Shown here: piece by piece, positions 1 to 61,800 of the stretch | Numbering within the stretch: position 1 is the stretch's first letter | Layout: each line of letters opens with the position of its first letter | NCBI GenBank assembly: GCA_050084515.1 | Contig: CM114271.1 | Coordinates: 27,156,001 to 27,220,000 of the forward strand | Source of the DNA: Blasia pusilla | Lineage: Eukaryota | Reading direction: 5' to 3' | DNA: 64,000 nucleotides | The notes under the pieces: model-generated | The model's input: only the letters and a program-made list of their open reading frames with translations | The model's database searches: none | Told to the model about the DNA's origin: nothing | Position numbers and translations under genes: made by a program

Positions 1-1822
1 TTATTCTCCTTGATGCAAGATTTGGTGTACCGGGTCACAGACTGTTGCCAATGGAAAACATCTGACCTTTCCCTCTCCGGTTGAACCACTCCACCCGAGA
101 ACACTTCCCGGATAGCAATCCACCTAGGTTGTGCATTGTCCGCCATGAACCCATAAATTTTCGGAGGTGGCCTTTTGTTTTCCTTCACCACCTCTAATAA
201 GAGTAACCATCACATCTTCAAACTACCAATGTCTTCTGCCTTTACTTCATAGACAAATGTAGTTTTGAGTCCCTTCTCCACATGGTCATAAACGTGAGCA
301 CCCATCGTCAACCATCCGTTCAGCACTCTGTAGCAAATATCAAAGCTTACCCAACTCCCGTAAAGATCTTCCCCTTCCCTCATTCGATCTATAAGATCGA
401 GGCCACTCGACGGACCTGTGGTTGACATTTTGAAGACATAGGCCCTGGATCCCTCGCCTCCTTGGCCCATGAACTACCATCTCTGAATGAATGGAAATCT
501 GGAGTTGGCCTTGATTCTGGTGATGGCATCCATTTCGGCCGTCTTTCCATCCAGAACTCGTATTTGACGTAGCAAATTCCGGAAGCATTCAGGATCAGCG
601 AGAAATGCGAGATTTTCCCAGAGTTGTTTCTCCTCAACCGCCGTGATCTCGCCCTGTCCAAGGATTCCAAGCAATTGTTCACAAATTTGTGATGCCGTTG
701 TGAGCTTGATCACTCCGGGCTTTGAACCCGAAGAGTTTCTGTAGACCTCGGCTACTTTCTTCGCCACATCCTCCTTGATGTGTCTTTGAATTGCATCGGT
801 CACAGGATGAGTGTGGGAGCCAACATGGACTGCCAGCCTTGTATACTCTGACTTGGAGCCCAAGTCGTGGACAATGAAAAATATGTATGCAGGACACGCT
901 CCAACACAGAAGGGCGATGCCTGACAATGAGGACATTGATGGCCTCCCGTCGGTATGGTGGCATCGACCTCATATGGAGTTTCTGCATTCTTGGGAGGGA
1001 ATTGTGACGTATTGACTCGCCCGTTGCGCTCTAGATACGGGCATGCTGGACTTCTACACTCCAAGGCTCCCACGCATTGGCGGCGGGAGACAATCCAAGG
1101 ACCATCTGGAATTGAAGACCTTTGGTCCGTTGAAGCTGCACCATCGATGACAATCAGACTTTCTATCCATACCCTTCAAGCGTCCTCCATCCTTCTTTTG
1201 AGCAGGAGCAGCAAGTGGAGGCAACTCAAAAATGCAATTACCATCGTACGTGGGCGGAAGCTCGTCGACAAGAATGTGCTTGAACATTTTCAAGGCCAGA
1301 GACATAAGCAAACTATTGCCGGACACTCGCAAGAGGAACGAGTAGGCGGACAGAGGGCCCGATTGGTGTCCGATAGATCCACTGAGGTTGATAACATCCG
1401 GAATCTCTTGAGGAAGAACAACATTGTTACAAGCGTGCGAAGTTGGAGTCGAAGCCGGATCTGCAGAGCTTGGAGTTGCAAACGTAGAGCTCGGAGCACT
1501 AGGAAATTCTAGATCGTCTACTTGGGAAACAGACGAATTCAGGGGCAGGCCGTAAACTCTGTATTGACCATTTGGTAGAGGTAGGAGATTCCATACTTTA
1601 CGGTCAGAGGTCACTGGCTGGACCGTCTTACCTATTATGTCTTCAGACTGCGTCCACCTAACATCTTTGGATACAAAGATGGTTCCAATTGGAAAAGAAA
1701 TCGAGCAGATGAAAATTTTCATCCACTGCTATGAAAGACTCACGAGCTTGGGGTCGAATGATTTTTGATTGAGGAAAGGCCGCCAGATGACTGCCACAAG
1801 TGAGCTTAACATAATTATCCAT
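1..1822 (-). pseudogene. MULE transposase, N-terminal and DDE part (frameshifts, in-frame stops; runs off window)
   Basis: ATG at 1822 (MDNYVKLTCGSH). Cys/His zinc-finger-like region (ECRSPACPYL...CPHC...CVGACPA...HVGSHTHP). Core WVSFDICYRV..GWLTMGAHVYD...YGFMADNAQ...DVFHWQQS matches the two Asp motifs and the (C/D)xxH motif of Mutator transposases. Confidence 0.8.
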
Positions 1823-2092
1823 TCCAAGAAGATTCCAACGGGAGGAGACTGAGAATGAGAATGAGAATGAGAATATTTAATTTATAGTGAATAGGGAACA
1901 GATACTCCTGACAGATTTTTACTGACAAGATGAATTCGGTGGGTGACATTGTCTGACACAATCGATCCAATTCTGTAACACATTCAATTCTGTTGCAATA
2001 TGTTACCGGATTTGGGAAGCAGAGGGTTGCGCATCACATTTGGAACCCACCAAAGTCCTGGTAACTCAAAAATTACCCGAAGCTAACCGAAG

Positions 2093-2612
2093 CCTGCAAC
2101 CCGTCAGCATCGAACGGGTTGCACGCTTCTGCGAAACATTGTCGAAGCGAGCAACCCGTCGCTCTCCGACGAGTTGCTCGGATATGGCTCCTTCTTGCCC
2201 GAAGATGCCGGAGGCGTGCAAACCGTATGTTCCCAATGAGTTCAGCGGGTGCCTCACCTTTTTGCCCAAAGATGGCGAGGCGTGCAACCCGTCGCCCTCC
2301 AACGGGTTGCGCAAGGGCCTTGCCTTGTGGTGCAGCCAGCCGGACTCTGACGACTTGCACAGGAACCCTTGATGAGGGAAGCGTGCAACCCAATGGTCTC
2401 CGACGGATTGCCCAAGATACGTCCCGTTCCCGTCCCAAACACAGCGGAGGCGCGCAACATGTCGGTCTCCAACGGGTTGCGTGGGTACCTCGCGTTCTTT
2501 TCCGAAGACGACGGAGGTGCTCAACCCGTCGGTCTCCGACGGGTTGCTCGCGCACGTGGCGACGTACCCAGGATGGCGGAGCCCGCAACCTGTCGGACTC
2601 GACGGATTGCCA
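2093..2612. repeat. Diverged tandem array (~65-70 bp units), each with the GCAACCCGTCGG-N-CCGACGGGTTGC palindrome
   Basis: Repeated GCGTGCAACCCGTC...ACGGGTTGC units between the two divergent genes; same array at 50995-51399, 57070-57482 and 61297-61800. Confidence 0.9.
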
Positions 2613-2699
2613 TTTTTCACGTCCGGACTTCCGTAACATCCGGCACGTCGCCGTCGAAAGGACGACGGGACCCAACGGTCAGCCCAACGGCTAGAAAAG

Positions 2700-2707
2700 T
2701 ATAAATA
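2700..2707 (+). promoter_or_regulatory. TATA box of MULE cargo gene
   Basis: GAAAAGTATAAATAGG, conserved in the other copies (57989 TATAAAAG; 61887 TATAAATA), ~300 bp upstream of the cargo ATG. Confidence 0.7.
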
Positions 2708-4180
2708 GGGCAGAAATTGCTCATTTCCGGTTTCTCATTTTGGGATCTTCATTCCTCACTCTCCCGCGCAGTAGTTGATCAGATACAAAGGGGCATTTCA
2801 CACGGCAACACATCGCGAGTTGATAGGAGGGAACGAGAGCGAGACGATTCGACCGAACGACGGCAAGACGGTTCGACTGAGCGATAGCGGGACGATTCGA
2901 GCTACCCATCAAGGCGATTCGAGCTCCCCATCTCGACATCAGCAAGGCGACTGATCAAGGGATTTGTCGTGGACATAGTTGGAGGCATTTTCGGAAAAAA
3001 TGACGAGGAAAAAATCACAAGCCAACAAGTCTGGGAGCTTCACTCCGAAGTCCATTATGACTCCTGCGTCAGCTTCTCCTGGGCCTCGTTCGGCGAATGA
3101 AATTAGGCAGCAGGAAATTGAGGAGCGGGAAAGGGAAGCGGAGATGCACAACCAAGTGCTTCTCGCGAGACTTGTTCAAGAGGCGCTAGATAAACAGAAC
3201 GCAGAGGCTGAGACGTTGCAGGCCTTGAAGAAAAGGATCGCCGACGAAAAGAGAGAAAAGAAGCGTCTGGACGCGTCGGTGAGGAGGGCAGAATTGGCTA
3301 AAGCGAGGAGGGAAAAAGCGATAGCCATTGATGATAGCCCAGCCTGTCCAACCGCAAGTGTTGAGATGCGGAAATGTCCCCACGAAGTCGGGGACACAAT
3401 CAACATAGTGGAAACGCCGAAGTTGAAATCGATGGACGCGAGGTCATGAGGACCGCCGGCGTGGAGATGGTGGACATGGCCGAAGAAGCCGGAGAGCGGT
3501 CATTCGACTCCAAGCCCGGCGGAGGACATCGACCTCTATCGGATCGACGAGTTCCCGGTCGATCTGCGGCTCTGTCTCGAGACAAGTTAGGCTGGTCAAG
3601 AAACCGACCCCATTTTCGAAAGCGGGTAAGAGAGGATCTGGGTTTTTGAATTATGTGAATTGCAATTCATTGGGAATTCAGTGTAGCTTATTGATCTTGT
3701 CCCGTTCGATAGGTGGTAAAGAAGATGGCACTCATGGAGGGCCCAACGCCCGAGGATTCCACTCTGCCGATTGCGGACAATGGAATACGTCTGCGAAATT
3801 CATCCCGGCGAGGACATCGCGAAAGCTTAAACAATCGCGGCGGAAAGATCCACGTCGACAGCTTTCCTCCCTTCTATGTTTAGCCTTACGGCGAGCATGG
3901 AACCCAAGCTCAGTTACGGAGGAGGACTTGGAAAAGCTCGACACATTCGGAGGATGCGAGACCAGGATTTCAGAAGGCAAGTTGAGGGCACGGAATTCAG
4001 CTGGATGAGGAATCTGCATTTCTTCATCTGGGATGGAAATCACAGGTTCATGGCCTGGACCAAGTTTGCGGAGGAGCGGCCCAACTCATTGGAGGCACAT
4101 TTCTGCGTGAAGGCAGTGGTCCTTCACCCATTCCCTCATCACATGGCAACGGTGGAGATGGCAATGCATGCCATGAACAC

Positions 4181-4940
4181 GTGAGTATCTTTAACACTTG
4201 CGCAACTCGTCAGGACAGTTGTTGGGATGCTTTAACACTTACGCAACTCGTCGGACTCCGACGAGTTGCTCGATTGATGAATGGGTTAGGTTTGTTTTTG
4301 CCGAAAGCAACTCGTCGGACTCCGACGGGTTGCTCGACTGCACGCTATTTCGGATGTTTTTTTAAGAATGCAACTCGTCGGACTCCAACGAGTTGTTTGA
4401 TTGACCACAGATTTAATTAGTTTTTGGCGCAAAGCAAAACGTCGGAGTCCGACGGGTTGCTCGACTCGCCGCCTTGTCAAGATGTTTTTTGAAGAATGCA
4501 ACTCGTCGGACTCCGACGAGTTGTTCGACTGACTGCAGGTTTAGAAGGTTTTTTCCCCAAAGCAACCCATCATAGTACAACGGGTTGCTTGCCTCAAAGA
4601 TGTTTTTGGCCGATATCAACCCGTCGGAGTCCGACGGGTTGCATTCGGAAGTTGGTTTCCCAAATTTTGTGTCAAATTGCAAGTTTACATTCAATTACGC
4701 AGCCTGTCGGACTCCGACGGGTTGCTATGTTCACGTTAGTATGTTCAGTTGCACAACCCGTTGGAGTCCGACGGGTTGAAACCAGGCATTAGCAAATCTG
4801 AATGCAATCCGTCGGACTCCGACGGGTTGCATCATTTAGCTCGTTGCTAGAATTCGACCTTGAGCTGTGACGACCCGTCGAAGTCCGACGGGTTGCAGGA
4901 ACCCATGTAATTTCTTGACGGGTTGAGTTTGGATGTGCAG
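4181..4940 (+). repeat. Cargo-gene intron filled with dispersed 27-bp palindromes
   Basis: GTGAGT...TGTGCAG boundaries; about ten copies, e.g. CAACCCGTCGGAGTCCGACGGGTTG at 4617-4641. Confidence 0.8.
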
Positions 4941-6946
4941 GATTGTATCGGAGGGGAATGTCACCCACCACGGATCCAGGACTGCGATCGGGTGAGGAGG
5001 GTGCTTACGACGTACCCGGGAGAGTACAGGGGGTTCTTGGGCGATGCCCTTGTCAATTAGATGCTTGCAAAGGGTGCTCAGATTAAAAAGAAAACTTGGG
5101 CAAATAAGTTTATTTCCCAAGATGCAGCCGTAACCATCCTTTGCTGATCAAGATACAGCGCAAGAAAAGCGCGCTTTGGAGCTAGAGCGGAGGGAGAAGG
5201 TATCTGCGTCTGAGCGCGCCAAATTCATCCAAGCTGCAATATCTACAGCAACGAAATACACGGCGAGCAAGATGCAGCGATACATCAGCATTCTCAACCC
5301 CGAACTTGGTCCGGAGTTCTACAAGGAGCTGAAGGCGATTATCAAGCGCCAACGGAAAAGGGATGAAGAACCGCATGGTCGGATTGGGGAGAAAGTGTCC
5401 CTGGATCGCGTGCATCGGTTTGCGTTGTCCGGGATAAGCGAGTTTAGGAGGATCCGACTGATGAAAATCAGTCTCGAGGGCTCAGAGGCCCAGAAGAGGG
5501 CGGCACACCATCCTCCGGGTGTGTCCGATCCAGTGATCTCGCATTGGCTACGCGAATGGTCGTTCTGGGACGCGTTGCGGGTAATCAGGAAGTCCGTGCT
5601 GGACGGTCTGCAAGTAGAGCTCAGAAGATTAGAGCCCATCCCGCCGGAAGCAAACCTTGAAAGTTCTAGAGATTTCGAGGTTTGGCTCGACGACATCCGG
5701 GACAAGCCAACCAAAAACCCAAGATTCAAGACCATGTTCAAGGTTTGCGTCCTCCCTCAGGTAGAGCTTGACGAAGAAGTAGAGGGGAACAAACGGGATC
5801 AAGCGAAGAAGAAGCGAGATCTACAGGAGCAGACGGCCGATTTTGTTCAACTAAAAGCTGCCCAACGGATGGTCTTCAGGTACCTCGTCCAATGTAAGAA
5901 TGCAGTACGTGGGGAAAAGTACCGTGAGCCTTGAAATTGTGGGCCGCCGCGGATGCGAGACATTCTCCATGTACGACATGGAGATGGGGCAGCACATGTC
6001 CGATTGGGAGGTGGAGAATTGCCCCATTTGGCTCAACGTCAACGACCCTGAAGACATCACCGATAAGGATTTACGAGTGCTTCATGATATAGTGGCCTCA
6101 GGACAAGACGACATCCCCAATTTCGTCCAGCCTGAAGACTTCTTCGGAGGAGATCTGAAGAGCAGGCCACGAGGCGGCTAAGTTGGCTTCCAAGGTCCGC
6201 TGACCAAAGACAAATCCACAAATGGTCTCAAATGCAAGGCGAGGGGAGGGAAAAATTCAGAGGCCGAGTCTTCCCAAAGAGAGGCTGAAGATTCAAGGCC
6301 AGAGGCGGAATCGTCCGGACGAGCAAGGAGAGAGGGTCGGACCAGGTCCTCGGCAAAAAAAACGCCACCAGAGTCCGAGGTCATAGAAACCCCGACAAGC
6401 CGTCCCGAGGACTAGGAGAAGCGGAAGCGAGAGGTGCCGGGTTGTCCCAAGGAGAATACGATCCATCATCCTTGGGAAGACACGGAGACAAACAACGACC
6501 GCTCAAGCGTCCTCCTTGATTCACTCCTTTCTTGGATGAGTGAAGAGCTTGATTCTCAAGCGTCGACACCAGCCATCGAAAATTTGACAACGCTGGGACG
6601 GAAGCTCCAACAAAACGGGCACGCTGCCTGGACGGTGAATGGAGTGGTCGAAGAGGTTGCGGTGGATCTCTTGATCTCCGATCTGCCCTCGGGGTTGCGA
6701 CTTTGGGGCGAGAATCCGTCGGACGAAGTACCTGAGTGGAATGTGCGCTCTCTTATCACCGATTGCGCTTTTGTTCTCCTTTGCGACGCCTATCCGAGTG
6801 CAGGGCTGCTTCTTGGTGTTGGATCGGAGGGAGCGAGGCGAGCTCTTCAACCTCCGTGTGTCAAGAGGTCGCTAAAGTGGAGGACGGCGCAATCATGGAT
6901 CATCAAAAACGAGTACCCACTCCGATCCGCGACGAGTCAGATTCGG

Positions 6947-7464
6947 GTAAGGCTCAATTCCTGTACTATAATTTCAATTATATTTTAATGATGTGTATAA
7001 TGAGAGTCAATCTGGGTTTTTTTGTCGTGAGCAACCCGTCGGAAGGCGGACGGGTTCTTCGGGTTTAGAGCACCCATGCTCGGTGAGAGCAACCCATCGG
7101 TTTCCGGCGGGTTACATCTTTCCCCATACACAAGGAAAACGCGGTGTACGCAACCCGTCGGAATCAACAAGGTTGCGATTGCTTTTGGTTTTTCGTTGAT
7201 TTTGGTTTTGGATGCAACCCGCCGATAGCGGCGGGTTGCTCTCGGCAAGCATGGGCTGCTCTAGGAGAGCAACCGTCGCCTTCCGACGGGTTGGTCATTT
7301 AACAAAAAACAGAGCCCGGCGGGTTGTTTTAGTCACGACCAACCCGTCCGAAGCGCGACGGGTAGGTCGGGACAAAACAACCCGTTGGACTCGGCGAGTT
7401 GATCCAAAGTCGATTATTGAAAATGTTCTCAAGCCGACTTCTTTAGTTTCGACATTGTTTCCAG
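6947..7464 (+). repeat. Cargo-gene intron with degenerate palindrome copies
   Basis: GTAAGG...TTTCCAG boundaries; several GCAACCCGTCGG...CGGGTT variants. Confidence 0.65.
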
Positions 7465-8472
7465 CGTCTTTGATTCTGAGATGGACCACTCCCTCACGTC
7501 TCTTCGCCCGTTCGCCCGAGCACAATTTCCAGGTGTTCAAGATCCAGGATCCTCTGGATCCATGCTCGATGGGTACAGCTTAGATAGTTTGTACAATTCC
7601 CCCCCCCCCCCGGGAATTTACATGCAAGACAGTACCCCATACGGGGAGGAAGGAAAAGTCGCCCGACCACGATGCAAGCGCTCATCGAGCTCTGCTCAAG
7701 GCCGGGTGACTTGGTGTTCGACTTAGTGGGACTTTCAGGGCAAGTATCAAAGGCACTGGCAAAGTGGCAGAACATTCTGCCTCGAGGAAGGCGAAGCTGT
7801 TTGACCTTTGCAAGGAGGCAAAGCGAGAATCTGAAAGGCTCGTTGGGCGTACAACTCTCCACGGCCGAGAGCTCGGTTCGAGCCACCCTTGGTAGTGACT
7901 CCATCGTCACTTCCAACGATTCCAAAAATCGGGAGGGCAAGGCGAAAGTAATTTTGCAAGAGCTCGGACGATGACGAGTGAGTTCAAAGAACTCAACGAC
8001 CAGCAAATTTTGACCGGCAGTGTTTGGAGTAGGGAGTTTTTGATAATGAGGCAAAGATTTCATAGAATAGATCAAATGTCTGATTGAGCTTTTTGGATGA
8101 TATAAAGCGAGAAGATTTTTTGAACGATGGTGGTGCTTGTAAAAGTTTCTTTGATCATTTTTGTCTTTTCGAATGTGATCGTCTATGTTCTCCACGGACT
8201 TCTATTTTGCAACCCGTCGGATTTCTCCTGCTTGCAACTTTTCACTTTATGACCACTGCAACGCGTCGGATTTCTCCTGCTTGCAACTTTTCACTTTTTG
8301 ACCACTGCACCCTTTTTACCACTTCCAGGCAACCTGTCTGATTCCGACAAGTTTCCTGATCGGACTCTTCCCCTGTTGGTCCAACTTAAGAGGCAGTCTG
8401 GCGGGCTTCTTCCCTTGGCACCTTCCCCTCAACTCGTAAAGGTAGGTGTAGGCTTCTTTTCTTCTCTCAGAC

Positions 8473-8793
8473 GTGTTGGATTCCTTCTACCTGTGCGATT
8501 GCCATAATGGTATTACCGGGGACGGAGCAGATATTGATACTGGATGGGTGTCACATTGCAGAGCATACAAGGTATACTGCCGAGGAAGGCGGTGGGACTC
8601 GAGACAGGTTACATGGGACCGTTATGGTGTACCTAGGGGGGGGCCAAGGCTCTTGAATTCGCCAACATTTTCGATCTCCGTCTACAATCGGCCAGAGGAG
8701 CCACTTGTATCCCAGGACATTCCTTTGGTACTATCACCGAGGAGAGTTAGGAGTAAATTTGTAGATGACGAGGCTGAAGAAATCATAGACTAG
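8473..8793 (+). CDS. Possible small additional cargo ORF (unknown)
   Basis: 106-aa ORF ending RSKFVDDEAEEIID; its 5' region is duplicated at ~8985-9205; no recognisable domain. Confidence 0.25.
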   Translation: MLDSFYLCDCHNGITGDGADIDTGWVSHCRAYKVYCRGRRWDSRQVTWDRYGVPRGGPRLLNSPTFSISVYNRPEEPLVSQDIPLVLSPRRVRSKFVDDEAEEIID

Positions 8794-9822
8794 GTGAAAT
8801 GTACATTTTCGAGGTTCCTTCGGAGGTAATAAAGGACGAGATTTTTCCAACCCATAATCGTGTTTGTAAAATTTTGCTGGAATATTTTTAATTTTTGGAC
8901 TTGTGGATTGTGTTCTTTTAGCTACTCAGAATTACAATTCTGCAACCCGTATGATTCCGACGGGTTGGAACTTTTTGCTTTTTGCCCACTGCAACTTTTT
9001 AACCATTTCCAAGCAACTTTGTCGGATTCGGACGGGTTATTTCGCTTGAGTGATCGGACTCTATCCCGGTGAGACCAACTTCTGACGCATTGTGGCGGGC
9101 TTCTTGACTTTTGGCTCGTTCCCCTTCATTCGTCCAACCAGTTGTAGGCTTCTTTTCTTGTCTAAGATGTGCAGGATTCCTACTACCTGTCGAATTGCCA
9201 TTTCGGATTCCCAACCTGTTAGATCGTCGTGGGTGCAGGGTGGAAGAAAATCACTTCTAAAAATCTTTCCTTTCTTATGGTGAGCTTTCTTAAGGGTTGG
9301 GAGGGGTGCAGCTTCTCGGTTTCTCAGCCTTAGGATCTGATTTGTTCACATTTCACAAAGTTGGTCTTGAGCAGACACCATTCATAACCAACAGAAAGTT
9401 GGTTATGGGGCAATTTAGGGGAGGCCATGATGCAGGCAACAATCCCTGCAAAAAGAGAGGTACCCATCCGGGTGGTCCTCCAACAAAAATACCAAGGGCA
9501 CTGGTTTTTGTTGACAGAGACAGGGAATGTTAAGAAACTTAGGCTCACATGGAGAGTGATGGAAAAATGTTTAGGGTGGTCTTATGATGTCTCCTTTTTT
9601 CTCGCCCCCAGGAAAGAGGAGAGGAAGAGAGGGCCAAATGTGGACCACTAAATACTCTCTTCTAAAGATTTCCTGAATTTTAAAGCAAACAAAAATTTCA
9701 AATATGTCAAAAAGTTTTGAAGAGAGGAGGCGGACTTGGCCTTTTTTTTTTTAAGAGAGACTCTCCTCTCTTCCTCTCTTCCTCTCCTCTCTTACTCTCT
9801 CCTGTCAGAATACCAGCCCCCC

Positions 9823-11171
9823 AGCATTGCGAGCACCGTGGATGCTAGAGAGCGGGATCGGATCCTACAGCGGGCCAGACGGTTTCGTTGGGAGGGGACA
9901 CATGTTTTGAGGGTTTGGGAGGATGGCAGAGTACGCGTAGTGCCGCATCCTTTGCAGAGAGCACGACTAGTGCAGCATGCCCACGAGGAGTTTGGTCACT
10001 TTGGGGTGAAGCGGACATACAACTTGCTCCAGATTCAGTATTGGTGGCAAGGCATGCAGACTGACGTTCAACAGTTTGTTGCCAGGTGCATGGTGTGTGA
10101 TCCGGTCCGAGCATCGTTCAATGCTCCGACTCCACAGTTGCATCTATTACCAATCATGGGCTTAGGGTATAGATGGAGTTTGGATTTTGCAGGACCTTTG
10201 CCTTTGATGAAGCGTCACAGTCGTTAAGTGTTGGTGATGATCGAGTACTTCTCGAAGTGGATCAGGTTGGTTGCATTGCCTGACAAAGTGAGTGAGGGAG
10301 TAGCTTATGCCTTCCTTGACAGAGTGCTGAGTCATTATCGCGCACCGGCTGAGGTGTTGACAGACCAAGGTACCGAGTTTCGCGGTGAGTTCCAAGCCTT
10401 GTGTGATCAGGCACTGATCGACCACCGCATGACTTCGCGAGATCATCCTGAGGCGGATGGATTAGCGGAGAGAGTTGTGCAGACGGTGAAGAGGGATTTA
10501 GGCAAGTATGGCTTGCATACAAATTCAGCAGGGAGACATCCTTAGCGTCTTTTTCATTGTACTTGCTACTTTATGGCCGAGAGCCAGATTTACCTACGGC
10601 CGTTCGTCGAGATGCTGGTGAGGTGCTAGACCTTGATGACCCAGATGTATGGGTGCGAGCATGTTCTCAAAGGGCTGAGTTGTTTTGGAGAGTGATGCCC
10701 ATGGCGTTCGAGAACTTGGCGATTGCGCAGCATCGAGATACGTTGAGGTATGCGACTATTCGGGGTGGTGGTGGTTATCGACCAACTATCCGGAGGTTTC
10801 ATCAGGGAGATTATGTCTACTTGCAGCAGATGGCACCGACGACGTTGGATGTGACTGTAGGGCGCACTATCTAGAGAGTGCGTGATGTTTTGCCATCCGG
10901 TGTTCTCTTGCTAGAGGGACGCGATGGTATGGTATGGAAGGACCATGAGCGTAATTGTGCGCCATGTCCACTTCCTAACATTGATGGTACAGTAGATCCG
11001 AGCTTAGCAATAGTTCCTGTAGGCTTGCATTGTATGTTGTGTGGTTCAACCCGTGGTGTGGCCACGATGCTAGTCTGTGATGGATGTTGGAGAGGTTGGC
11101 ATATGGCATGTCTAATGCCACCTCTCACTAGGGTTCCTCTAGGATGATGGATGTGTCCCAGATGTACATAG
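9823..11171 (+). mobile_element. Gypsy-type LTR retrotransposon fragment: integrase with C-terminal PHD finger (degenerate)
   Basis: HHCC (HEEFGH...CMVC), WSLDFAGP, LTDQGTEF and ADGLAERVVQT integrase motifs, then CMLC...CDGC...HMAC...WMCPRC; stops and frameshifts present. Truncated on the left by the MULE end. Confidence 0.9.
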
Positions 11172-14600: not shown

Positions 14601-16050
14601 GGGCTTGCCTCTCCCACCGCCAATCGTGTCTGCACACCAACCATATCCAACCTTTGGGAACTTGTTTAAGGCAATGAGGATCCCATTGATGGGTACATCA
14701 ATGGGATCCTCATTGCCTTAAACAAAGTAAGAAATTGAGGAAGCTACGTCTATTTTTTGGCTTTCCCTTTCTGTGGGTCCAACTCTATGACTACTCTACG
14801 AGTAACGAAAACCAGTGCCTCCATGTGTGAAGCCCCGCACATACAAACAAGATCCTCCTTATCTTTGATTTCTCTGTATAAGGTCGATGCCACTAACCCA
14901 ACATCAGGTAACCTCAACGCCTTCACGGAAATTTGCTACTCTAACTGCTCTAACAAGTCAGCCATTCTAGCCTGGCCGCTAGAGTTCCCCTTAACTTTTC
15001 TAGGTTGTGGACCTCTACCTCCTCGTCGAGCATATCCATCTCTCCTATGGGTGTATCCAACTCCTCGACCTCCTACTTGATCACTTGGAGGATGACTTTT
15101 GGCCCCATCTGGACTGCCAACTTGCTCTAGAACCCTCTTTCGCACTCAATTTGGACATAGCTTAAGGTGTAGGCTAAAATATCTAACGCATTTATGACCA
15201 TACTGCTCACAATGGTCAAAATATATTATGTCTAGTGCGAATATCCCAAGACCAATACATGGACGTCATAGAGTGTGACCTCTACTTCTCCTAGCTTTGC
15301 CTTAAGGCACTCTCAACCTTGAGCTTTGCAAACGGAAGACTCAGGTTGAGTTCCAAAGACTCAACCGATTGCATGTTCTGTAGAAAGTGAGAAACTGCCA
15401 AGGCCTAATCATATCAAGTCATTGCAAATGCGTGTTGTCTCCATATGAAGCCTCTTCCCCAAGCCTCAACCATTATCCCCAAATTGCTTCCTTATACCAG
15501 AGTACGTCATTGAATTCCTCAAGGTATGTCCCCTAGCTTAAACTTGAAACTCAGCCGAATACATATGGTTTTTGGTTCAAGGACTTAAACTTATAGGGTG
15601 GAGGAAGAGTACTCCACCCTATAGGTACTTCTAGGGTTCTTTTGGGAATCCCATCTTCTCAAAATCTCCATTGTCTCCCTAGACCCTTCATTTTGGCCTT
15701 GAATCCAAACGTAGTCTAGAACTCATAGATTGGCGTTTGACTAGTTATCCATCAAGATGCCTTGTAAAGGCTTCATGTAGATAATGCAACTCTCATATCC
15801 CCAAACACATCTTGAAGATTAGACTCACATTTCATGTGTCCCATGGATGGTTCGTGTCTAGAATTCCCATTTGGTGTCTCATGGTTGTCTTTCACCCTTC
15901 ACACTTTAGGATTAGTCTCCCCTATTATGATTACACTAAACCCTTGGAGGTATTCATTTCCGTGGAAAGGACAGGATCTGTTCGCCATCTTAAATCCCAC
16001 CTAAGACGCAACCCTTGCTAGGTCAAGTGAAAACCTCCTCTGACCACTTT
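11640..16050 (-). mobile_element. Heavily decayed Gypsy-type retrotransposon (gag - protease - C5 DNMT - RT)
   Basis: RT remnants DLQVGYHQ (~11800-11823) and FLPFGLKNA (~11690-11715); protease-region remnant CPFML*TSLGG (~14090-14125); possible tRNA-Met-like PBS at ~16485-16495. Boundaries approximate. Confidence 0.7.
12570..13520 (-). pseudogene. C5-cytosine DNA methyltransferase domain inside Gypsy pol
   Basis: Motifs in canonical order: I IRVLDFFGGI (~13470-13500), IV DLVISYWPCQG (PCQ 13246-13254), VI YILENV (ENV 13114-13122), VIII-like LWTNL (~12981-12995), IX EPNVDEREQTMVFP (~12690-12728), X-like RHVLDEVMNLNCL; many stops and frameshifts. Confidence 0.8.
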
Positions 16051-17613
16051 CACACCAAGGATCCATGAGATGAGAATGTTAAGGACATCCTGCTATATCA
16101 CTCAAGCTTGGCTCAAGTACTTCTGGCCAATCTCTTGAATGAAGAATCCACACCCTACCACTTAACTCATGCTTAAGGTTCATGCACAAGACCTTTTCGC
16201 AGTTAGAATGCACAGGTTACACGTGTTACACGTCATCATCATTGATGACAAAGGTCTCTGCCCGCCCGGATGGGCCTTCCTCAGTTTTCTTGTACACCGA
16301 CATATCCATGGATTTATCTTGAAAGAGATTTTTTCCTTGAAGAACTTTCAAGAAATGTGTGTTTTGTATCAAACGTTATCTTTCAAGCCAACCTCTATAA
16401 CTACCCTACATCCACTCTGACTTAGAAAGGGGGAAAATCTGAATTGAGTCCAAGTTCCACTTTCACCCATTTGTCCACATTGCTTCCAGATACCATGTAG
16501 TCAAAAACTTCACAATCATTAACCTATTTGTTCCTGACCCATGGTATTCTGTGCCATCTCCCTCCTATTTTAAGCAAGCCAAAGGATACTTCAGGCAAGT
16601 ACACTCTCTTCTTATCTAAGAACTGAAAAGATAAGTTCGAGGACATTCAGCTGCCGTGTCCCTAGCCGCTTTTGGTATGGGAACGCTGTGCAGAGCAATG
16701 TGGACATTCACCATGAGAGACAAGTGGTAGATTGCTCAAAGATTGAAGGACAAAACGCCCTTTGAGACATCCAAGTAAGAAATTCATGTATAAAATGAAA
16801 ACCTAGATCCACTGGGGAGAGGAGAATTGACAATAACTCAAATCAGACTTTACATCCACCAGGCAAATATGCTCCGCTGTACAGAAAAATACTCTACGCG
16901 GCAGCAAGTTGACATTGAAAAAGTTAATCAACCTAATAGTGGCCGCTGTGTGGAGTCAACTATGACTAAGAGACGGCCCTTCTCAGGGAAGGAGCAATCA
17001 CATAAAGCTCTGCATTAAAATAACATGACAACTTGCTCTCCCGCGGGTACTGTCGTAGGAGAGTTTGGCAAGTATCATAAGTCCAGCTGTACAGCGCACT
17101 GTGCCATCAAGAAGGCAAACATTGGCAGGACGTTGCTCAGCAACCAGACCCATTAGCTACTCTCATTACAGCCCCTCTATCAACGCAGCATGCTAGGCAG
17201 AGCAGAAACGCATTATTTACCAAGCTACTGACGAAACAATATACGCTCAAGGGAGATCTGCTCCTAGTTCCATAACCTGCCACAGACGTGGGTGGCAATC
17301 TACAGTAATTAGGGAACGTGAAACAAGAATAACAAACAACTCCCTAAGAATTTGACAACACAAGCTGGACGTGGTGCGACACACTATTGTAAAGAAATAC
17401 GCACCATGCCCTAGATGCTTGTCCCCCGAGAATGCCACCTGATCTCTAAAAGATGACATGACATCTTGAAAAGGGCGAGTCCGCAGTAAACTAAAGTTGC
17501 AGAGTTCTGGCCGAAAGACATGGCCAAGCAAAAGAGAGCAGCTAAAAGGTGTCTAACCACATCTTCTCCTTGCACTGTGGAGGAGGCCACCAGTTCTTTG
17601 TGATCCACTGAAC

Positions 17614-20600
17614 TCAGTCTTCATAGTCGCCTGCATGCTCCAATAAGTAGTTGGCAGCCAATTCCTCATTCTTGTCACACGCCAGAAAGGCCTCGATGAC
17701 GAGATTGCGCTCAAAACCCATTGCCTCGAGCTGCAATGTGGAAGGACAGCAGAGGCAGTCAATTAGCTCATAGCTGCAAATAACAACTGCTATTGCGGTC
17801 TGAATACCAGGAGACATAAATAAACTCTAAGTGTGGGCGAGGGGATAGTCCTACCCTCTCAATAGCTTCCCTCTCTTCTTGAGTAACATTTATAGATTGT
17901 GGCATAGCTCCTGCTAGTTGGCCAAGTAAGTCGCTGCAAAATTCAAATGGGAATCCCATTAGCATAGACAACTGTCTTCATCCAATCTAACTGTAGATGA
18001 CAACCATCAGGAACTTCAAAAGAACTTCATAATGTTTCAGCAGACAGAAAAAAATACAACCATACTCACCCTTCAGCAGCTTCACCACCTGGCTCATTGA
18101 TAAGGCGTAAAAATTCTGGCTGATTCTCATTAATAAGGCGCAAAAGTTGAGGATTTTGTTTTCCAAGCTCTTGCAGCATAGGCTGAAACCGACAGAAAAA
18201 GAAAGGTGTTCAGAATTTCCCAAACCGATGACAACTTTCATTCAACACAACAGTGATTGCTGTGCCAAGATAAGAATCTCAATTAAAATAACGGTCCAAC
18301 TGGTGATAAATCTTGAGCAAATTAGACTGAGATCCAGTTCCACATTCAAAAGGACTTTCACAAACCACTTGATACCACTAATATGTAAATGCTTCCAGCA
18401 CTGCACATACTGGTTACAAGAGGTAATTCACCAACCCAGTACAAAGTTCCACAAGTAAAATGACTCATAGTCAACCTAAACACAGAAATACTTGTTGTAA
18501 GTGCACTAAAACTGGAATCTGTAAACTGTCTTGACAATTTGGCACTCTTGTTCCTAGACAATTACTAATCTACTCACATGCAAACAGGTTAACACATGGC
18601 CATCTTCAACAGTGACCTTCATGTGTGTCTGAGCGTACCTGCAAGATTTGAGGATTGGCTTGTACCATTGTCCTTAGCGCTTGAAACTACACATGCACAA
18701 ACCAGGCATCGCCCACTGGTAAGTCTGGCGAATGTGGGTAAACTTGATTCCATCCAATCATCAAGTGCATAGAGTGAAAGAATCACAAGATAAAAATGGT
18801 GAGGAAGCAGCCATTCTCTGGCATGACCAACCCAAAGAACATTCGGATTGGTATGCAGAACTAATATATAAACATACCTGGGCATTGGTCCGTAAGAAAT
18901 CAAGAGCACCTGCGCCAGCACCTGGGCCACCAATGCCAGGAATGCCCTGCAGAGTTCAACTCTTTCTCATTAAAGTTTAATCACAACTTGTAGGATGTAG
19001 GCTTTCTCTACTACCGCCAATTATACATCCAATCAAAGTTCAGACAACAAATGGTTAAGAACGAACTCAAATAGAATTCTCTTGCATACCTGGGGGAAGA
19101 GGTCCAAGGGGGCTGCATTTGGTCCACCTAGAGGGGGGGCTGGTTGGGCAGGAGCAGCAGGAGCTGGCACAGCTACAGGCGCAGATCCAGTTCCTTGAGG
19201 GGGGGGGGGAGCACGTGCCACGGGGGCCGCAACTTCAGCTGCCTCTGGGATGCCCTGCCAAATTGCAAGAGCACTTCAGGTTTAACTTTTGGGAAGATTG
19301 CTGATTAGCTGTGTTACCCCTGAACATGATAATAGAAACTGAGATGACAAAAGCACAACCCACATCCTGGGAAAGACATAATCTAGTGTCAAATTCCATC
19401 TGCAGAACAAGAGTATATCACAAAGCAAGTATACACCAATGCCCACAGTATGTTCTCCATGTGTACAAAATTCAAACCACGGGCTTTAGAGTACTTACAG
19501 AGTACAGGTATTCAACAGCCCGCTCAGGGTTGTTGTACGCAGCTCGCAGGGCTCTGACAACTGTATCTCGATCCCAGCTTCCACCACCCATGTCAATAAT
19601 CTGTTGAATGGTTTGCTCCAAGTTTGTCCCAGCAACAAGATTTGATGCAGCTTGGCCATAAGGATCCGCAGGAGCACTGTACAATCCACCTCAAGTTCAA
19701 AACGTCCCATTTATCAGTCTTTAACCTCGCAGGTCTCGTACACTTTCCCAACAGATTCTTAGAATCGGGGATGTCCAACTTGAGGTATTGAATCCTAGAT
19801 TGTTATCTTTCATTCAGTGCTGTTGTTAGAGTCTATTACACACAAGAAATAATGATAGCCACAATCAGCTAATTGATGTAACTTGCAGGTGAATTAATCA
19901 GATCACGATATGGATCCCAGATCCAAAGGTGGAGAGCACCGACAGAGACTTGCACGTTAAGACAGAGAGACCACATTGCGCACTCCATGAAAAGCAACCA
20001 CAGTTACACCCCCCCCCCCCAAGAAGTATATGCAGAAATGTCTGTTGAGTTAAAGTTTTGTCAAGAGGGTTTGCTACTTTCTCATGAGATTCAACATGAC
20101 ATCCGTCCGAAGACTTATGTTGGACATTCATCTGGAAACTAGTGAAAATTGACATATACAGTCTATATTCACAAAACCGTAATAGTATAGGCTTGAGAGC
20201 CAAGATTCCACGTACGCAGCGGTGGCTGATCCAGGGGCTGGAGGTGTGGCACCCGTCAATGCTACAGGTAAGGTAGATCTGAAGACAACCATTGCAGGAA
20301 TCCGATGAATATCAATCACAGGAGTATTCAAATAACCTAAAGAAACTACACAGGAATACCCTATCGCATTGTCAACTGTCATACATATCACTCCTGGAGA
20401 GCATCATATAGAGCTATACTCAGCATTTCATATATATACCTTGACCATATATGACACATTAACAACTACTTATGCACATCGTAAACAGACTCACGGAGCA
20501 GGAGCAGTTCCAGCTGTGGGAGCAGGTGCAGGCGTAGGAGTAGGGACAGGAGTAGGAGCTGTGGGGGTTGGGGCAGCTACAGCTGCAGGAGCTGCCGGTG

Positions 20601-42200: not shown

Positions 42201-43506
42201 AAATGCTCGCAAAGGGATGTACAGACAAATAGATTGAAGGGCTGAGCTTACCTGCGCTCTGCTGCAGCTAACTTGTTCAAAAGATCGTTGATATCCTTGA
42301 TCTTGAGACCCATTGATGTGACTCGTTGACGGCGGAGCAGAATCTAGTTCAAACATGCTCTTGTGAGAAGTTTAGTGATCACCTCAGACCAACGAAAAAT
42401 TCAAGCCCACCGTGATTGTAGTTCAGCTACTGAATATGACCGTATGCATCCAATCTACATAAAAGATGACTCAAGAAAATGGATAAGTAAACGCCATGGA
42501 AGATGGAATTTTCTCTTGGTTACTCATCTTTATTTGTCAGTGGCAGGACTCATCTTCATTTTACATACAAATCGCACCTTGACATGAACTGCTCTACAAT
42601 CCTAACGATGACTGTAGTTCTGTGATTGAACTTCATACGCTAGGTTAAGCTCAGAATTTTATTGCTGACAATGTCACACTATTGTGTACACTTTGACTCA
42701 CAAAACGCTCAGATACGAGTTCGTACAACTTAATTGGCTCAGAGGTAACTGTTACAAGCGTAACCAACCTAGCCCGTCAGACAGGAAGCACTCGCTACTG
42801 GCTATCATTCAGAAGTAAGTAAGACGTTTTCGATGAAGAAAAGCTCAAATAATGAAAAAAACTTTGCAGGAGATTGTGCCGTGACTCGAAGGATTAACGC
42901 AAACAATGTTACGCAAGCGCAGCAAAATCACGAGGCAAATTGAGCAAAATGAGAAATACCATAACTCAAGGCTTCAGTGGAAAATGGGTGTGCGGGCGGG
43001 GAGGGAGCTGCAATAAAACTTGCACACAGTAGAGGCATTCCTAGGAATCATTCTTGATCTGCTCGAAGAAAAAGTTTCTCAGAATTATAAAGACCAATCG
43101 TCCGATCGTTCTGCGCGCATCATTACGAACATTATGAACAAAATCAAAAAAGGTGTAAAAGAAAATTCACCTCGGTGGCGACGAAAGAGAAGTTCCCAGC
43201 ATTGCTACCAGCTCGATTCCCTCCTTTCCTCCAATTCAAAAACTTTTGTGCATCCTCTGATTTCTCTGACAAGCACAACGCCTCGGCGAGCGACTTTGCA
43301 AGCACTGCCTCCCGGAGACCATAATTACCCCGATCTTTATCAAGGTTAGGTAACATCAGGCGCATAGCGCTGAAAAAATCGTGACCCGTGTACACATGAG
43401 TTAAAAACGTGCGCACGTGCTTACGCTTCACTGGACCCTTTTTTGCCCGCACCACGGCATCCAGCATGCTACAGAGCACTGAAAATTCAACAGTTGCATC
43501 GCACAT
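27219..43506 (-). CDS. LIG4: DNA ligase IV (multi-exon; DBD, adenylation, OB, BRCT domains)
   Basis: ATG 43506 (MCDATVEFSVLCSM); exons encode LKLGISEKTVFNEFHPDAEDLFNVTCDL, catalytic ECKFDGDRIQIHK (~39350-39400), CILDGEMLVWD, EGIILKDLDSKWEP..KWLKLKPDY, GYFGSGRRGG, LRFPRVHKVRYDKPW and BRCT segments; last exon ends VDDLLNPR* at 27219. Not every exon boundary was resolved. Confidence 0.95.
29900..30581. mobile_element. Solo LTR in LIG4 intron
   Basis: TGAGAA...TTCAACA flanked by 5-bp TSD CACCC (29895-29899 and 30582-30586). Confidence 0.75.
35050..36970 (+). mobile_element. 5'-truncated decayed LINE (RT + C-terminal CCHC) in LIG4 intron, antisense to the gene
   Basis: FVDFKRA, VKQGCSMSPTLL, LL*TDDIVL (YADD-equivalent) and RLCRHC...DDEQHYLFHC motifs across frameshifted ORFs. 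Confidence 0.9.
39673..40331 (+). mobile_element. Probable solo LTR in LIG4 intron
   Basis: TGTTGAAA...GCCAACA termini and an internal TATA-like CTATAAGAG; no convincing TSD. Confidence 0.45.
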
Positions 43507-46090
43507 CTTTACGAGGGGACTGCAGTCTGCACGCGACAGCGATAACACCAATTTCGAATTTTCACCACACACAAAATTTCCCAAGGTTTGGAATTCCTCA
43601 ATTTGAACACCTCTCTTTCCAGTATTTCACCGCATTCGGGCCTCTTTAAACTGAATGATCGCACATTTTACGAGTAGATTGCACACTGGGAGCCAGAATA
43701 GTAACACCAATTTCGACTCCACAGCAGTTCGAAATTTCCAAACGTTTCCAATTCCAAAATTTGATCACCGATCTCTTCCCACTCTTCCACCGCATTTGGC
43801 CCTCTTTGACCTGAACGATGTAGGTGAAGAAAATCTTTCCGCTACCCAAATTGCCACATTCGGACACGCCGTGCGAGGTTGACGGATCTGGAGCGCCTTC
43901 CTCGTACACGTCAGTGATGGACAAGCGTTCAAAATTTGTGCTGTATGATAATCAAATCGTTTGTGATTTCGTTCGCCACTGCGCGTAAAATCATCAACCT
44001 CATGACGATACGATAACGCAAAGATATGTATCATCTGCACGTCATGGACAAATCACAGGAAAGTGAAATGTGCACACCTACGTCTCCATTCGATAACACA
44101 AACCTTCCATGACACGTAACAAAGAAACGCTGGGGCTGACCCGCTTCGTTCGCTAGAGAATCGCTACAGCGTAAGAAGGGCAAACTCACCTGCTGCACTC
44201 ATCTTTGGTACATCGTACACTTCCGCTTCTGCTCACGACTGTGATGGACTCCTATAATGTAACGGGGCCAAAAGGAATCCCTCTTGTGTATACACATGTG
44301 GACGTTCATCACCGGTGTGCGCTGGGTATAGTTTACATTTAAGAACAAAATATTTATAGATTTTAATTATTTTATTATAATAAATTAAAAATTAATTTTA
44401 TATTATTAAAAGAGGATAGGTTTAAAAAACACTTCTTCATATAAATTTATTTTGACACATGTAATATTTAGGCATATTTAGGCATAACAAAGGTAATATC
44501 CTCTCAAAATAGAATCCTCTTTCCGCAATCATGGCTTAAATGAACTAGTAAGAATACTAGTGCCCCTTATTAATTTCTTTTTACATATAGCACGGGAGAC
44601 ATAAAATCTTGGAGTAAAAATAATTTATAGTCCTATTTTCCTTTCTTTTCTTCGTTATATTTAATTATCTACTGTTGATATGTGTCAACATCACGAAAGC
44701 CCTCGGAGGACATGCGTCGAGAGGAGGAGGAGGGATTCTCTAAACCCATCCTCTGTAAATAGTATAAATTACATATTTACGGCCCCAAATATCATCGGCT
44801 TAATTTGGCCCAAGATTGTCGTGGCGGCATGTTTGTCACGAGTGCAAACGTAGCACAATGTGTCCACGTGTCAAAATGATGGTCGTGTCGATCTAAGAGC
44901 CGCTAGATACATGTGAAGATATTAGGTTGGTCTCAAGATTTGTCAAGGCAAGGCTCATATGTGGCATTCAAGAAAGCGATTTCACAGCAAAGTTCTAAAA
45001 GTAGGAAGGCCTAAGTGTTTGTGCGTATCCTATCGAAAACTCATCAACACCATGTTGCTCCTTTGCTGATAATTGATTGTTGGGCCACAACACCCCGCAA
45101 TATGTTTCTACATTCTTCGTGCCAAAAGGAGTACATGCCTGCCAATTTCTTATGTGTATAGGATTTTGCAGGCACTCTGCACAATGCGGGTGCCGGGAGT
45201 AATGGCATTAGGGGTAAATACTGGATGTCACGGCGTTCTACGTGAATTCAGCTACTTGTTACTATATCACGATCCTATTGCTATCCATTCTTAACATGCA
45301 AAAGGCAAAATTTTATCTCCAAAAAAGGAGATTCGGTTGCATATTTGTGTGACGATTATTGTTCACACAAGTTGAGATTCACTCTCATTGTTGGTCCACA
45401 GATTACTTGTTGTTTTACAGCATACTCTGTGCCTGCCTACTACTCATCTTATCTCTATCAAGTTGTTAGAATTCAAAGGCTAGTTCTTTCCCACGAGTCA
45501 GAAATTAGTGTGCTACTATTGGATCCGCCTTATGCAATATCAAGGATGCTTGGATTTTTTCCTGCACTATCTCACGGTCTGCCAAATATATTGGTTGCGT
45601 GTCCCATAGCATTAATTTTCTTCCTCCACCAAATTTCACATGTATCGGATTTTGTTGCATGCAAAGGAGACCCTCAAGGACAATCGTTCCTTTTCCATCC
45701 CTATTTGCAACTCCCACTCGTCATTGTGTTGTAGGCACGAAGGATTGTTTGTTGCTCTTCGTATCTTTGTGTCACTTTGTACATATGTTGTAATCTCACT
45801 TTCTTGCTTAGTACTTCAGGACTTGAAAAGCTATGCCCTCCCTCAGTGCATTGAGGCACCACTGAGCTTACACACATGAAAAATTCTTCCACTCTTCCAC
45901 ATTTAGGCAACCCATCTGAATCCGACGGGTTGCAATTTGCACAAAATTTTTAAAAACAGGAAAATTGTTCGAATCATAAATGTGGAACAAATCTCTTTTT
46001 CCATCCAAGGTCTCGAAAAAATCTATCATTTCCCCTGGGCTGAATAGAGTTCAAGCTCAAAGTGAAGGTTCTGGCAAATGAAAGTACAAT

Positions 46091-50453: not shown

Positions 50454-50994
50454 TCCCAAATTACTCCACCGGGTGGAGAATGAGCATAAGAATAAGAATA
50501 AGAATAAGAATGGAAATGAGAATGAGAATGTTTAATTTATAGTGAATAGTAACCGTTATTCTCCTGACAAGATGTTGTTTGGTGGGTGAGATTGTCTGAC
50601 ATAATGGATTCAATCTTGTTGCAACCTGTCGGAGTCCGACGGGTTGCAAATTTTGGGACTCGACCACGTGGGTTGCAAAGCCACGGAGTATCTTCTTCTA
50701 AGTGCAACTTGCAACCCGTCGGAGTCCGTTGGATTGAACGCACTTTCTTATCGGTTACCCCTGCCTATGTGATCAGTCTGATTGGAGACGGGATCCACGA
50801 GACCTCACATGGATTTCCTACAGCAACGTGTTGGGGACTACAATGGGTTGGAAAGGTACCTTACCTCACTTTCCCTTTTGGAGGTAACTGAGTTTCAAGG
50901 GGATCTCACGTCGATTTCTCTTGTCCACTGAACCGTGCAAACCGTGAGGGCAGTTTTGCTGTATGGTGGGAAGTGTCCAGCCCATGGTAGACCT

Positions 50995-61296: not shown

Positions 61297-61800
61297 GACA
61301 AAGAGGGGTTGCCCAAATACCTCGCCATTTACCCCAAGATGAGGGAAGCGTGCAACGCGTCAGCCTCTGACGGGTTGCGCAAGCGCCTCGCCTTGCAATG
61401 CTTACATGAAGGAAGCGTGCAACCCATCGGCCTTCGACAAGTTGCGCGGGTACTCCGCCTTGTTATCCCAAGATGAGGGAAGCTTGCAACCCGTTGGCCT
61501 CAGATGGGTTGCGCAAGTGCCTCGCCTTGTAATGCTTACATGAAGGAAGCGTGCAACCCATCGGCCTCCGACTTATTGCGCGGATACGCCGCCTTCTTAT
61601 CCCAAGATGAGGGAAGCGTGCAACCCCCGGTCTCCAACGGGTTGCGCGGTTACCTCGCGTTCTTGCCCGACGACAACGGAGGCGCGCAACCTGTCGGTCT
61701 CTGACAGGTTGCCAAGATAGCTTGGCATCTTTACCCGAGGAGGACGGATTCTTGCAACCTGTGGGAAGCATGCAACCCGTCGGAGCCGTCGGGTTGGTGG
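61297..61800. repeat. Palindrome tandem array, MULE copy C
   Basis: Same ~67-bp units, followed by TATA (61887) and 24-bp tandem repeats (~61990-62085). Confidence 0.85.

Follow-up and report, generated by a model that had tools for sequence, protein, structure and literature searches.

A decayed DNA transposon family with a divergent ParB/methylase-like accessory gene and its own palindrome arrays

The 64,000-nt stretch of contig CM114271.1 analysed here (the window) is eukaryotic and full of transposable elements. Its left end (1-9822) is occupied by copy 1 of a DNA transposon, in which a transposase gene and a divergent, multi-exon accessory gene on the + strand (the cargo gene) are accompanied by clusters of a 27-bp palindrome; further partial copies occupy 46-61 kb and 61.3-64 kb. 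Frameshifts and an in-frame stop in the cargo gene and in-frame stops in the transposase gene make copy 1 a pseudogene, and the window copies are decayed members of one DNA transposon family that have no direct function themselves. Their interest lies in the cargo product, which appears to combine a ParB/sulfiredoxin (Srx)-like domain with a domain derived from a DNA methylase, and in the palindromes that surround its exons. The features of copy 1 are as follows:

1-9822: copy 1; 5′ part of the transposase gene (− strand), cargo gene (+ strand) and four palindrome clusters
3-1728, − strand: 5′ part of the transposase gene, identified from open reading frames (ORFs) and by tblastn to nine metagenome loci; runs off the left end of the window
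2096-2547, no strand: palindrome array A, six copies at ≤6 mismatches, in the spacer between the divergent transposase and cargo genes
3000-3625, + strand: cargo exon 1, encoding a charged, coiled N-terminal region from MTRKKSQ; frameshifted; splice donor GTAAG at 3626
3722-4180, + strand: ParB/Srx-like exon (phmmer, tblastn, fold search); donor GTGAGT at 4181
4243-4896, no strand: palindrome array B, 11 copies with a period of ~64 bp, in the intron after the ParB-like exon
5134-6181, + strand: middle of the cargo gene, mostly helical, in two overlapping frames (5134-5934 and 5855-6181); resembles by eye exons 3-5 of L084, a relative described below
6590-6820, + strand: methylase-like exon with motif IV; VDLLISDLPSGL at 6662-6697 and VPEWN at 6728-6742 (alignment A2)
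7089-7176, no strand: palindrome cluster C, two copies at ≤6 mismatches, between two methylase-like exons
7421-7974, + strand: methylase-like exon with motif I; PIRGGRKSRP at 7636-7665 and GDLVFDLVGLSGQ at 7705-7743
8205-8968, no strand: palindrome cluster D (the cluster itself 8209-8968) and 3′ non-coding region

The donors at 3626 and 4181, with most relatives ending at the same residue, indicate that the cargo gene is spliced. Several other apparent exon breaks in copy 1 are damage, namely the in-frame TAA at 3828 within the ParB-like exon and frameshifts near 3430-3600 and 7590-7720; the exon at 7421-7974 is divided by a frameshift between frames 7421-7726 and 7588-7974. Counterparts of exon 1 were found at 58,314-58,994 and 62,073-62,830. 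A homologue search with the helical middle part (5134-5934) recovered no related proteins, and the exon that follows the ParB-like exon (HVKTNLV...) gave no Pfam match on the relatives that contain it.

The ParB-like exon carries the motifs PRIPLCRL (3750-3773) and IWDGNHRFMAW (4026-4058). A phmmer search with ORF 3831-4184 against 1.84 billion representatives identified 27 relatives (best E-value 4.9e-8, none <1e-10), and of the 10 looked up the liverwort Riccia sorocarpa contributes four, all hypothetical proteins, and six come from other contigs. These Riccia proteins are the nearest named relatives, the others being from AT-rich, eukaryotic-looking metagenome contigs. An AlphaFold model of one relative (P0003), built with a 29-sequence alignment (A1), had a predicted local distance difference test score (pLDDT) of 89.2 and a predicted template modelling score (pTM) of 0.83. 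Its best Foldseek match in the PDB was ParB-CDP (6sdk; E 0.022, prob 1.00), and the 49 best PDB matches listed were nearly all ParB, Srx, Noc, KorB, PadC, SbnI or SerK; in the viral library a phage protein named DNA methylase ranked first, ahead of many ParB/Srx entries. Across the 29 aligned sequences D and H of the DGNHR box are invariant, G and N are present in at least 90% and R is variable; the box can be likened to the ParB arginine box (GxxR type) by position only. Structure prediction thus gives modest support to a ParB/Srx fold of the nucleoside triphosphate (NTP)-binding type for the N-terminal domain of the cargo protein.

Relatives of the gene were gathered with the ParB-like alignment as 80 metagenome loci, mostly AT-rich, decayed and eukaryotic-looking contigs. 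Downstream of the ParB-like exon, on the same strand, these encode a conserved domain (vDLVIaDIPxNLxVP...IPxWN...FL..G.llFHxdD..VLKEI.SyLe...KWvvvN), to which VDLLISDLPSGL...VPEWN of the window (6662-6742) aligns, and a second conserved exon (PWRGPREK...GDIIxxWNASTG), whose window counterpart is PIRGGRKSRP...GDLVFDLVGLSGQ. The best-preserved relative, L084, has about eight exons, and its second exon (L084:3136-3504) gave a sole Pfam match, to PF01555 (E 0.021, 15.2 bits; cut-off 26.7). The PF01555 gathering threshold was reached neither by this exon nor by the window ORFs or the methylase-like chain P0028, the latter two having no match at all. In the Atlas, 24 of the 30 nearest clusters of the last methylase-like exon were PF01555, which is a lead only.

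Comparison of profiles was more informative. With a profile built from 42 YhdJ-like PF01555 proteins, hhalign aligned the family alignment A3 at 94.9-95.6% probability (E 4e-9 to 4.5e-8) over 182-208 collinear columns, as against 0.1% for the reversed alignment, ≤0.5% for 20 column shuffles and 0.2% for an unrelated family. Taken by exon, the motif IV exon (A2) matched methylase columns 4-127 (84%, E 7e-6) and the motif I exon columns 103-231 (85%), the window's own motif I exon alone reaching 39%. The collinear match places motif IV before motifs X/I, which is the beta order. From these alignments we conclude that the C-terminal domain of the cargo protein derives from a beta-order N6_N4 methylase. 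The spliced, divergent cargo gene of the original prediction, with a ParB/Srx-like domain followed by a beta-order N6/N4 methyltransferase-like one, is thereby upheld, for the first domain by fold search and for the second by profile-profile comparison.

Whether such a domain could still methylate DNA bears on one alternative, in which the cargo would be an active N6-adenine or N4-cytosine methyltransferase, targeted by its ParB part to the palindromes and writing a protective mark there, as in the epigenetic interpretation first offered for the window and as proposed for algae. In its favour are the collinearity with N6_N4 methylases, including HP(T)xKP-like and motif I regions, the conservation of the first (D/N) and third (P) residues of motif IV and, in the accessible text of PMC12704722, the frequency of phage ParB-fold fusions to PF01555. 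However, motif IV reads [DN][ILV]Px[NG]L in all members examined, without the second proline and the stacking aromatic (SDLPSG in the window; DIPENL, DVPRNL, NVPGNL, NIPRNL, DIPEGL, NVPSNL and DIPSNL in relatives), and motif I is also altered (NASTG or VGLSG): LDWNASTG, FEWNASTG and FDLVGLSGQ align to DPFxGSgTT with the glycine loop partly kept. We therefore hold an active enzyme of this kind to be improbable, so that of the N4/N6 methyltransferase-like domain first described the domain order stands and its presumed activity is weakened. Conservation of the motif IV variant across deep divergence argues that the domain is functional; judged from these motifs it is probably functional but not a canonical adenine-N6 or cytosine-N4 methyltransferase. 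An extra G after position 7844 was present in 7/7 reads of one RNA run and in about a third of the DNA contig depth, so the window copy has a 1-base deletion in its last methylase-like exon relative to expressed copies.

The two parts of the cargo gene stay together in relatives. A methylase-like ORF was found on the strand of the ParB-like gene in 28 of the 33 loci with at least 4 kb of downstream flank, and none of 61 methylase-like ORFs was on the opposite strand, so by sequence this gene fusion is stable. Linkage to the transposase recurs as well: tblastn identified relatives of the window transposase in nine distant loci (30-38% protein identity), always on the strand opposite to the ParB-like gene and upstream of it in eight; in one (L114) the two genes are ~240 bp apart. 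The association of cargo and divergent transposase that had been read from copy 1 is thus a recurring layout. Tblastn with the window cargo exons from 5134 to 7974 gave nothing at E<1e-3 in the 80 loci, so the link of that part to the relatives rests on profile alignment and similarity by eye.

The transposase itself is incompletely contained in the window, which begins inside its catalytic domain (FMADNAQ near 149, WVSFD near 353); in-frame stops lie at 210-212 and 474-476, and a Cys/His-rich N-terminal region spans 477-1175. The reading D...D...(C/x)xFHW resembles an RNase-H-fold DDE enzyme. Pfam searches with the transposase pieces, a 391-aa read-through (stops as X) and the relatives in L114 and L130 gave no MULE, DBD_Tnp_Mut, SWIM or other transposase match, no SWIM finger is visible in the 5′ part that the window contains, and a PDB profile search with alignment A4 returned spurious matches only. 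In the Atlas the nearest families were hAT-type and RNase-H-like (0.80-0.83, under the 0.9 level), a weak lead. Of the Mutator-like DDE/SWIM transposase that had been proposed, a divergent DDE-type frame at 3-1728 is retained; the Mutator-like and SWIM assignments are not supported.

The family is highly repeated, since 95,762 contig pieces of a DNA run map to the stretch. RNA reads on it are few and mostly 85-95% alike (mostly under 90%), and must therefore derive from other copies. First mates lie mostly on the + strand over the transposase and mostly on the − strand over the cargo, and the strand pattern of family members fits divergent transcription. A joint from 7990 to 8520 in RNA reads was rejected as an intron, the same joint being present in a DNA contig and thus a deletion variant. 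Three runs gave 37, 35 and 51 RNA reads over a 40-base piece of the ParB-like exon at 3761-3802. The reads share four fixed differences, run into unrelated sequence on both sides and have the strand opposite to that of the other cargo reads; their source is probably a related piece within some other transcript that is better expressed. A host gene family as the source of the cargo was rejected, because the family is highly repeated, has several decayed copies in the window and repeatedly adjoins the same transposase.

The palindrome of the window, GCAACCCGTCGG-NNN-CCGACGGGTTGC (27 bp; arms of 12 bp, spacer of 3 bp), is present at ≤6 mismatches of 27 in 22 copies in 1-9822 and 68 in the whole window, as against 0 in five shuffles of the window. 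As the original prediction had it, there are dozens of copies and they keep to non-coding DNA: they are confined to the three element copies, outside homology-supported exons, and there is none between 8969 and 45,906. Spacing in copy 1 is mostly 51-69 bp. Weaker copies around cluster C span 7027-7294, and the 3′ non-coding region at 8205-8968 also has a 49-bp tandem repeat (8208-8309) and an internal duplication of ~690 bp. In the palindrome arms 83 of the 212 differences from consensus are CpG transitions, which fits decay driven by cytosine methylation.

The same palindrome is absent from 80/80 of the metagenome loci, in which two other lineages have their own. A 'moss-like' lineage carries a 26-nt palindrome (TTCAACTTTCGA..TTGAAAGTTGAA; 51 copies in 10 loci), as arrays that separate the ParB-like from the methylase-like exons (6-8 copies each, period 51 bp); the lineage of L080 carries a 24-nt palindrome (TGAGGTGCC-GGTAAA-GGCACCTCA; 13 copies in L080), both upstream of the gene and within an intron. 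Shuffles gave 0 copies of either. Palindrome arrays are thus supported as an integral, lineage-specific feature of the accessory genes, and this co-variation with lineage, seen at the level of sequence, is the best argument that they may be functional partners of an element-encoded protein. At L151:8135-9572 and at L144:955-4973 and 14964-17913, close to ParB-like genes, there are also repeat arrays of other kinds (AATTAATTATGG-type units) and long inverted repeats.

Two accounts would separate the palindromes from the cargo protein. They might be binding sites of the transposase (e.g. of its Cys-rich N-terminal domain), like the sub-terminal and internal motif arrays of CACTA (TNPA) or Ac/Ds, with the ParB/methylase-like protein acting elsewhere. 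Binding of a DNA transposase to motifs repeated within its own element is common, array A lies exactly between the divergent genes and adjoins the 5′ end of the transposase gene, whose product is Cys/His-rich in its N-terminal region, and no DNA-binding domain was identified in the cargo. We nevertheless find this unlikely: in relatives the arrays follow the accessory gene, upstream of it and in its introns, even where a transposase was not detected, and they are spread through the interior of the element, although its ends were not located here. The palindromes might alternatively have no protein partner and be hairpin minisatellites grown by slippage or unequal exchange, which could even give rise to hairpin small RNAs by which the element is silenced. 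The regular tandem arrays with periods of 51-67 bp are of the kind this predicts, the palindrome-bearing intron (bins 4252-4905) has RNA reads at least as deep as the exons, and palindrome decay is mainly by CpG transitions (the 83/212 above). Three diverged lineages with different array sequences, of similar size and in similar position by the same gene, are hard to obtain in this way without selection for some function linked to that gene, and we strongly doubt this second account.

The explanation we favour, with a little better than even confidence, is that these are decayed transposons with a transposase, a divergent ParB/methylase-like accessory gene and their own palindrome arrays, and that the accessory protein may recognise the palindromes. 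The product of the accessory gene is built like phage ParB-methylase fusions, a ParB/Srx N-terminal domain being joined through a long helical stretch to a methylase-like domain of the beta-order N6_N4 type. In intact copies it might recognise the element's own palindromes as ParB does parS, and would then mark or occupy the element, most likely countering host silencing or organising a transposition complex. A motif IV that is conserved but departs from the canonical form makes us favour a role in binding or scaffolding, or a non-standard chemistry, over ordinary writing of N6-methyladenine or N4-methylcytosine.

Several results weigh against this explanation. Every element copy in the window is broken, no termini or target-site duplications were found for the element, and clean GT-AG splice joints are absent from the RNA reads on the stretch. 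Among the 80 loci, many are repeat assemblies of the same element, so that counts are not independent, and a hidden Markov model (HMM) finds the transposase upstream in just 6 of the 26 loci with enough flank. For the ParB-like part, a Pfam ParBc (PF02195) match is absent from the window exon and the 10 relatives, among which the lone Pfam match is of P0017 to DUF1015 (E 0.0056, 16.1 bits; cut-off 25.8), which we take to be a member of the ParB clan; a PDB profile search with A1 found no ParB and spurious matches only, all Foldseek E-values exceed 0.001 with query-normalised TM-scores of 0.22-0.47, and no DNA-binding helix-turn-helix was identified in the cargo. For the methylase-like part, an HMM built from the same 42 PF01555 proteins ranks ORF 7588-7971 first of 1697, yet with an E-value of 1.2; the window ORFs alone have no Pfam match, no relevant PDB match (7588-7974 and 6416-6988) and no phage tblastn match (7588-7974), and a homologue search with 7588-7974 found no related proteins. 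A PDB profile search with A3 returned no methylase. The model of P0028, a chain that reads through an intron and is without the C-terminal end, is poor (pLDDT 58.5, pTM 0.35), with meaningless Foldseek matches, and motif IV in every member seen is not (D/N/S)PP(Y/F/W). The spurious matches in the PDB profile searches with A1, A3 and A4 were to HIV gp120, spidroin and Lmo1076. Profile and structure searches, by which the two domains had been expected to declare themselves, thus yielded a ParB/Srx fold and an hhalign methylase match, and failed at Pfam thresholds, in PDB profile searches and in the methylase-like model.

A more far-reaching version, which in our estimate is unlikely, would have bryophyte transposons carry a working ParB-parS-like system, in which an NTP-switched ParB-fold protein loads on the 27-bp palindromes, spreads, and shields the element from silencing or assembles a transposition complex, its methylase-derived module being without canonical catalysis. 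Its loading sites would be the element-specific palindromes at the promoter of its own gene and within the introns, and the near-unity CpG of copy 1 in a CpG-poor genome would be a protection footprint. The observed/expected CpG ratio is 0.9-1.28 in copy 1 (2000-8000), 0.48 in the rest of the window (12,000-45,000) and 0.68 in the adjacent long terminal repeat (LTR) retroelement; the high value of copy 1 may mean that it is young, is protected or has escaped cytosine methylation.

The other element copies and their neighbours in the window are listed here:

48,862-50,614, − strand: copy 2, 5′ part of the transposase, 83% identical to 219-1971; 3′ side truncated
58,327-60,514, + strand: copy 2, 5′ part of the cargo (reaching 59,541) and the palindrome array after it
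61,329-64,000, + strand: copy 3, palindrome array, 5′ part of the cargo and further palindrome array; runs off the window
62,938-63,383, + strand: copy 3, ParB-like exon, frameshifted
9721-11,147, + strand: LTR-retroelement integrase (Integrase_H2C2, rve) followed by a PHD finger (E 3.9e-7)
52,292-55,676, − strand: Copia-type retroelement (RVT_2, Pol_BBD, gag_pre-integrs, SH3_retrovirus; domains at 52,292-55,069), between the transposase and cargo parts of copy 2
43,144-43,626, − strand: ORF with a match to PF04675, the N-terminal domain of DNA ligase (E 1.4e-13)

Three copies of the layout had been reported for the window; there are three element copies, but all are partial. The Copia insertion splits copy 2 between its transposase and cargo parts, copy 3 has the 5′ part of the cargo without a transposase, and cargo sequence past 4900 is present only once in the window. 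The left end of the element lies outside the window. On the right, loose ends of RNA reads place the junction of copy 1 with the LTR retroelement at ~9522, and the final 330 bp before it match nothing elsewhere in the window. No terminal inverted repeats bracketing the genes were found in the seven long relatives searched. As neither termini nor target-site duplications were identified, the earlier size of '13 kb or more' is unverified. Copy 2 is flanked by an inverted duplication of ~600 bp (46,570-47,300, − strand, and 60,329-61,342, + strand; 83-90% complementary), the right arm of which sits in a 337-aa open frame (60,329-61,342) with no Pfam match and no relatives among the 80 metagenome loci; it might represent a terminal region, a further gene or a different element. 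Of its pol gene, the LTR retroelement at 9721-11,147, which abuts the transposon at ~9522, retains the 3′ part only, and the DNA ligase-like ORF is probably an exon of a host gene.

If intact, expressed members exist in bryophytes, the hypothesis put forward for algae in 2025, in which a ParB/methylase protein of prokaryotic derivation lets transposons recognise and modify or protect themselves, becomes testable, some bryophytes having good genetics and being easily grown. With the lineage-specific palindromes, each protein already has a candidate site against which its binding could be tried, and the conserved non-canonical motif IV raises the question of whether the domain is an enzyme or a methylase fold re-used for binding.

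Several known systems share parts of this arrangement. VANDAL elements (Arabidopsis Mutator-like elements) and their VANC proteins resemble it, by analogy only, in that an accessory protein is proposed to act on the element's own non-coding motif arrays; to our knowledge VANC has no ParB or methylase domains, and kinship in sequence or fold would not be expected. ParB-parS and Noc/KorB systems likewise combine an N-terminal ParB/Srx fold with clustered palindromic sites on the same replicon. Unlike ParB-parS, no ParA partner was seen here and no helix-turn-helix identified, and the 27-bp palindrome is, as we understand it, unrelated in sequence to parS.

Closer in architecture are the ParB-methylase fusions of phages, which presumably have canonical catalytic motifs. 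Unlike these prokaryotic, intron-less genes, the cargo is a spliced eukaryotic gene with a long inserted helical region and an altered motif IV. Fusions of ParB-CTPase folds to PF01555 are described as enriched in phages in the accessible text of PMC12704722; as far as that text goes, the domain order and the two folds are the same as here, and the top viral structural match of the N-terminal domain was a phage protein named DNA methylase. Other eukaryotic ParB-linked methylases are among those listed in the available portion of PMC4738411.

The nearest parallels are in algal giant transposons. In red-algal Plavaka elements, the available sections of bioRxiv 10.1101/2025.02.11.637652 (later cited as Curr Biol 2025) describe PAG2 (PF01555 + SET) and PAG3 (ParB-like + 2-oxoglutarate oxygenase) with tandem inverted-repeat arrays next to PAG3, and draw a VANDAL-like self-binding hypothesis. 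Shared with the window family are ParB-like and N6_N4-methylase-like cargo and inverted-repeat arrays beside the ParB-type gene, and the best HHpred match given there for the ParB part (7BNR_B as printed) is also among the Foldseek matches here. As those sections present them, the two domains are in two genes in red algae, with SET and 2-oxoglutarate oxygenase domains, whereas here they are fused in one; the transposase there is EnSpm/Plavaka (also Mutator or Zisupton), and the arrays lie beside PAG3, whereas those of the window family are also inside cargo introns. In the brown alga Ectocarpus, the 21.5-kb Sola1-1_Ec32 encodes, according to the available part of PMC12477816, a 1104-aa protein with ParB-like and N4C/N6A methylase domains, opposite to the transposase, which its authors propose to bind and modify its own element. 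The window family resembles it, going by that description only, in having both domains in one protein of a DNA transposon, on the strand opposite to the transposase. It differs from Sola1-1_Ec32 in that the latter belongs to a brown alga and moves by a transposase of the Sola1 type; the description makes no mention of palindrome arrays.

The suggestion that the system might be undescribed is accordingly weakened, the same parts and the same notion of self-binding and anti-silencing having been reported in 2025 in brown and red algae (PMC12477816; bioRxiv 10.1101/2025.02.11.637652, in the sections available). None of the 15 top-ranked papers on ParB in bryophytes mentioned ParB, and on ParB/methylase accessory genes of DNA transposons the algal papers were the only relevant ones; within that scope we found no land-plant report of such ParB/methylase transposon cargo. 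Insofar as the available texts cover them, both the concept of ParB/methylase cargo and its proposed self-binding role are already published for algal (brown, red and green) giant transposons, and the family described here is apparently a land-plant (bryophyte-like) case of this recently described kind of transposon. What is distinctive in it is the conserved non-canonical motif IV and the lineage-specific palindrome arrays inside the gene's own introns.

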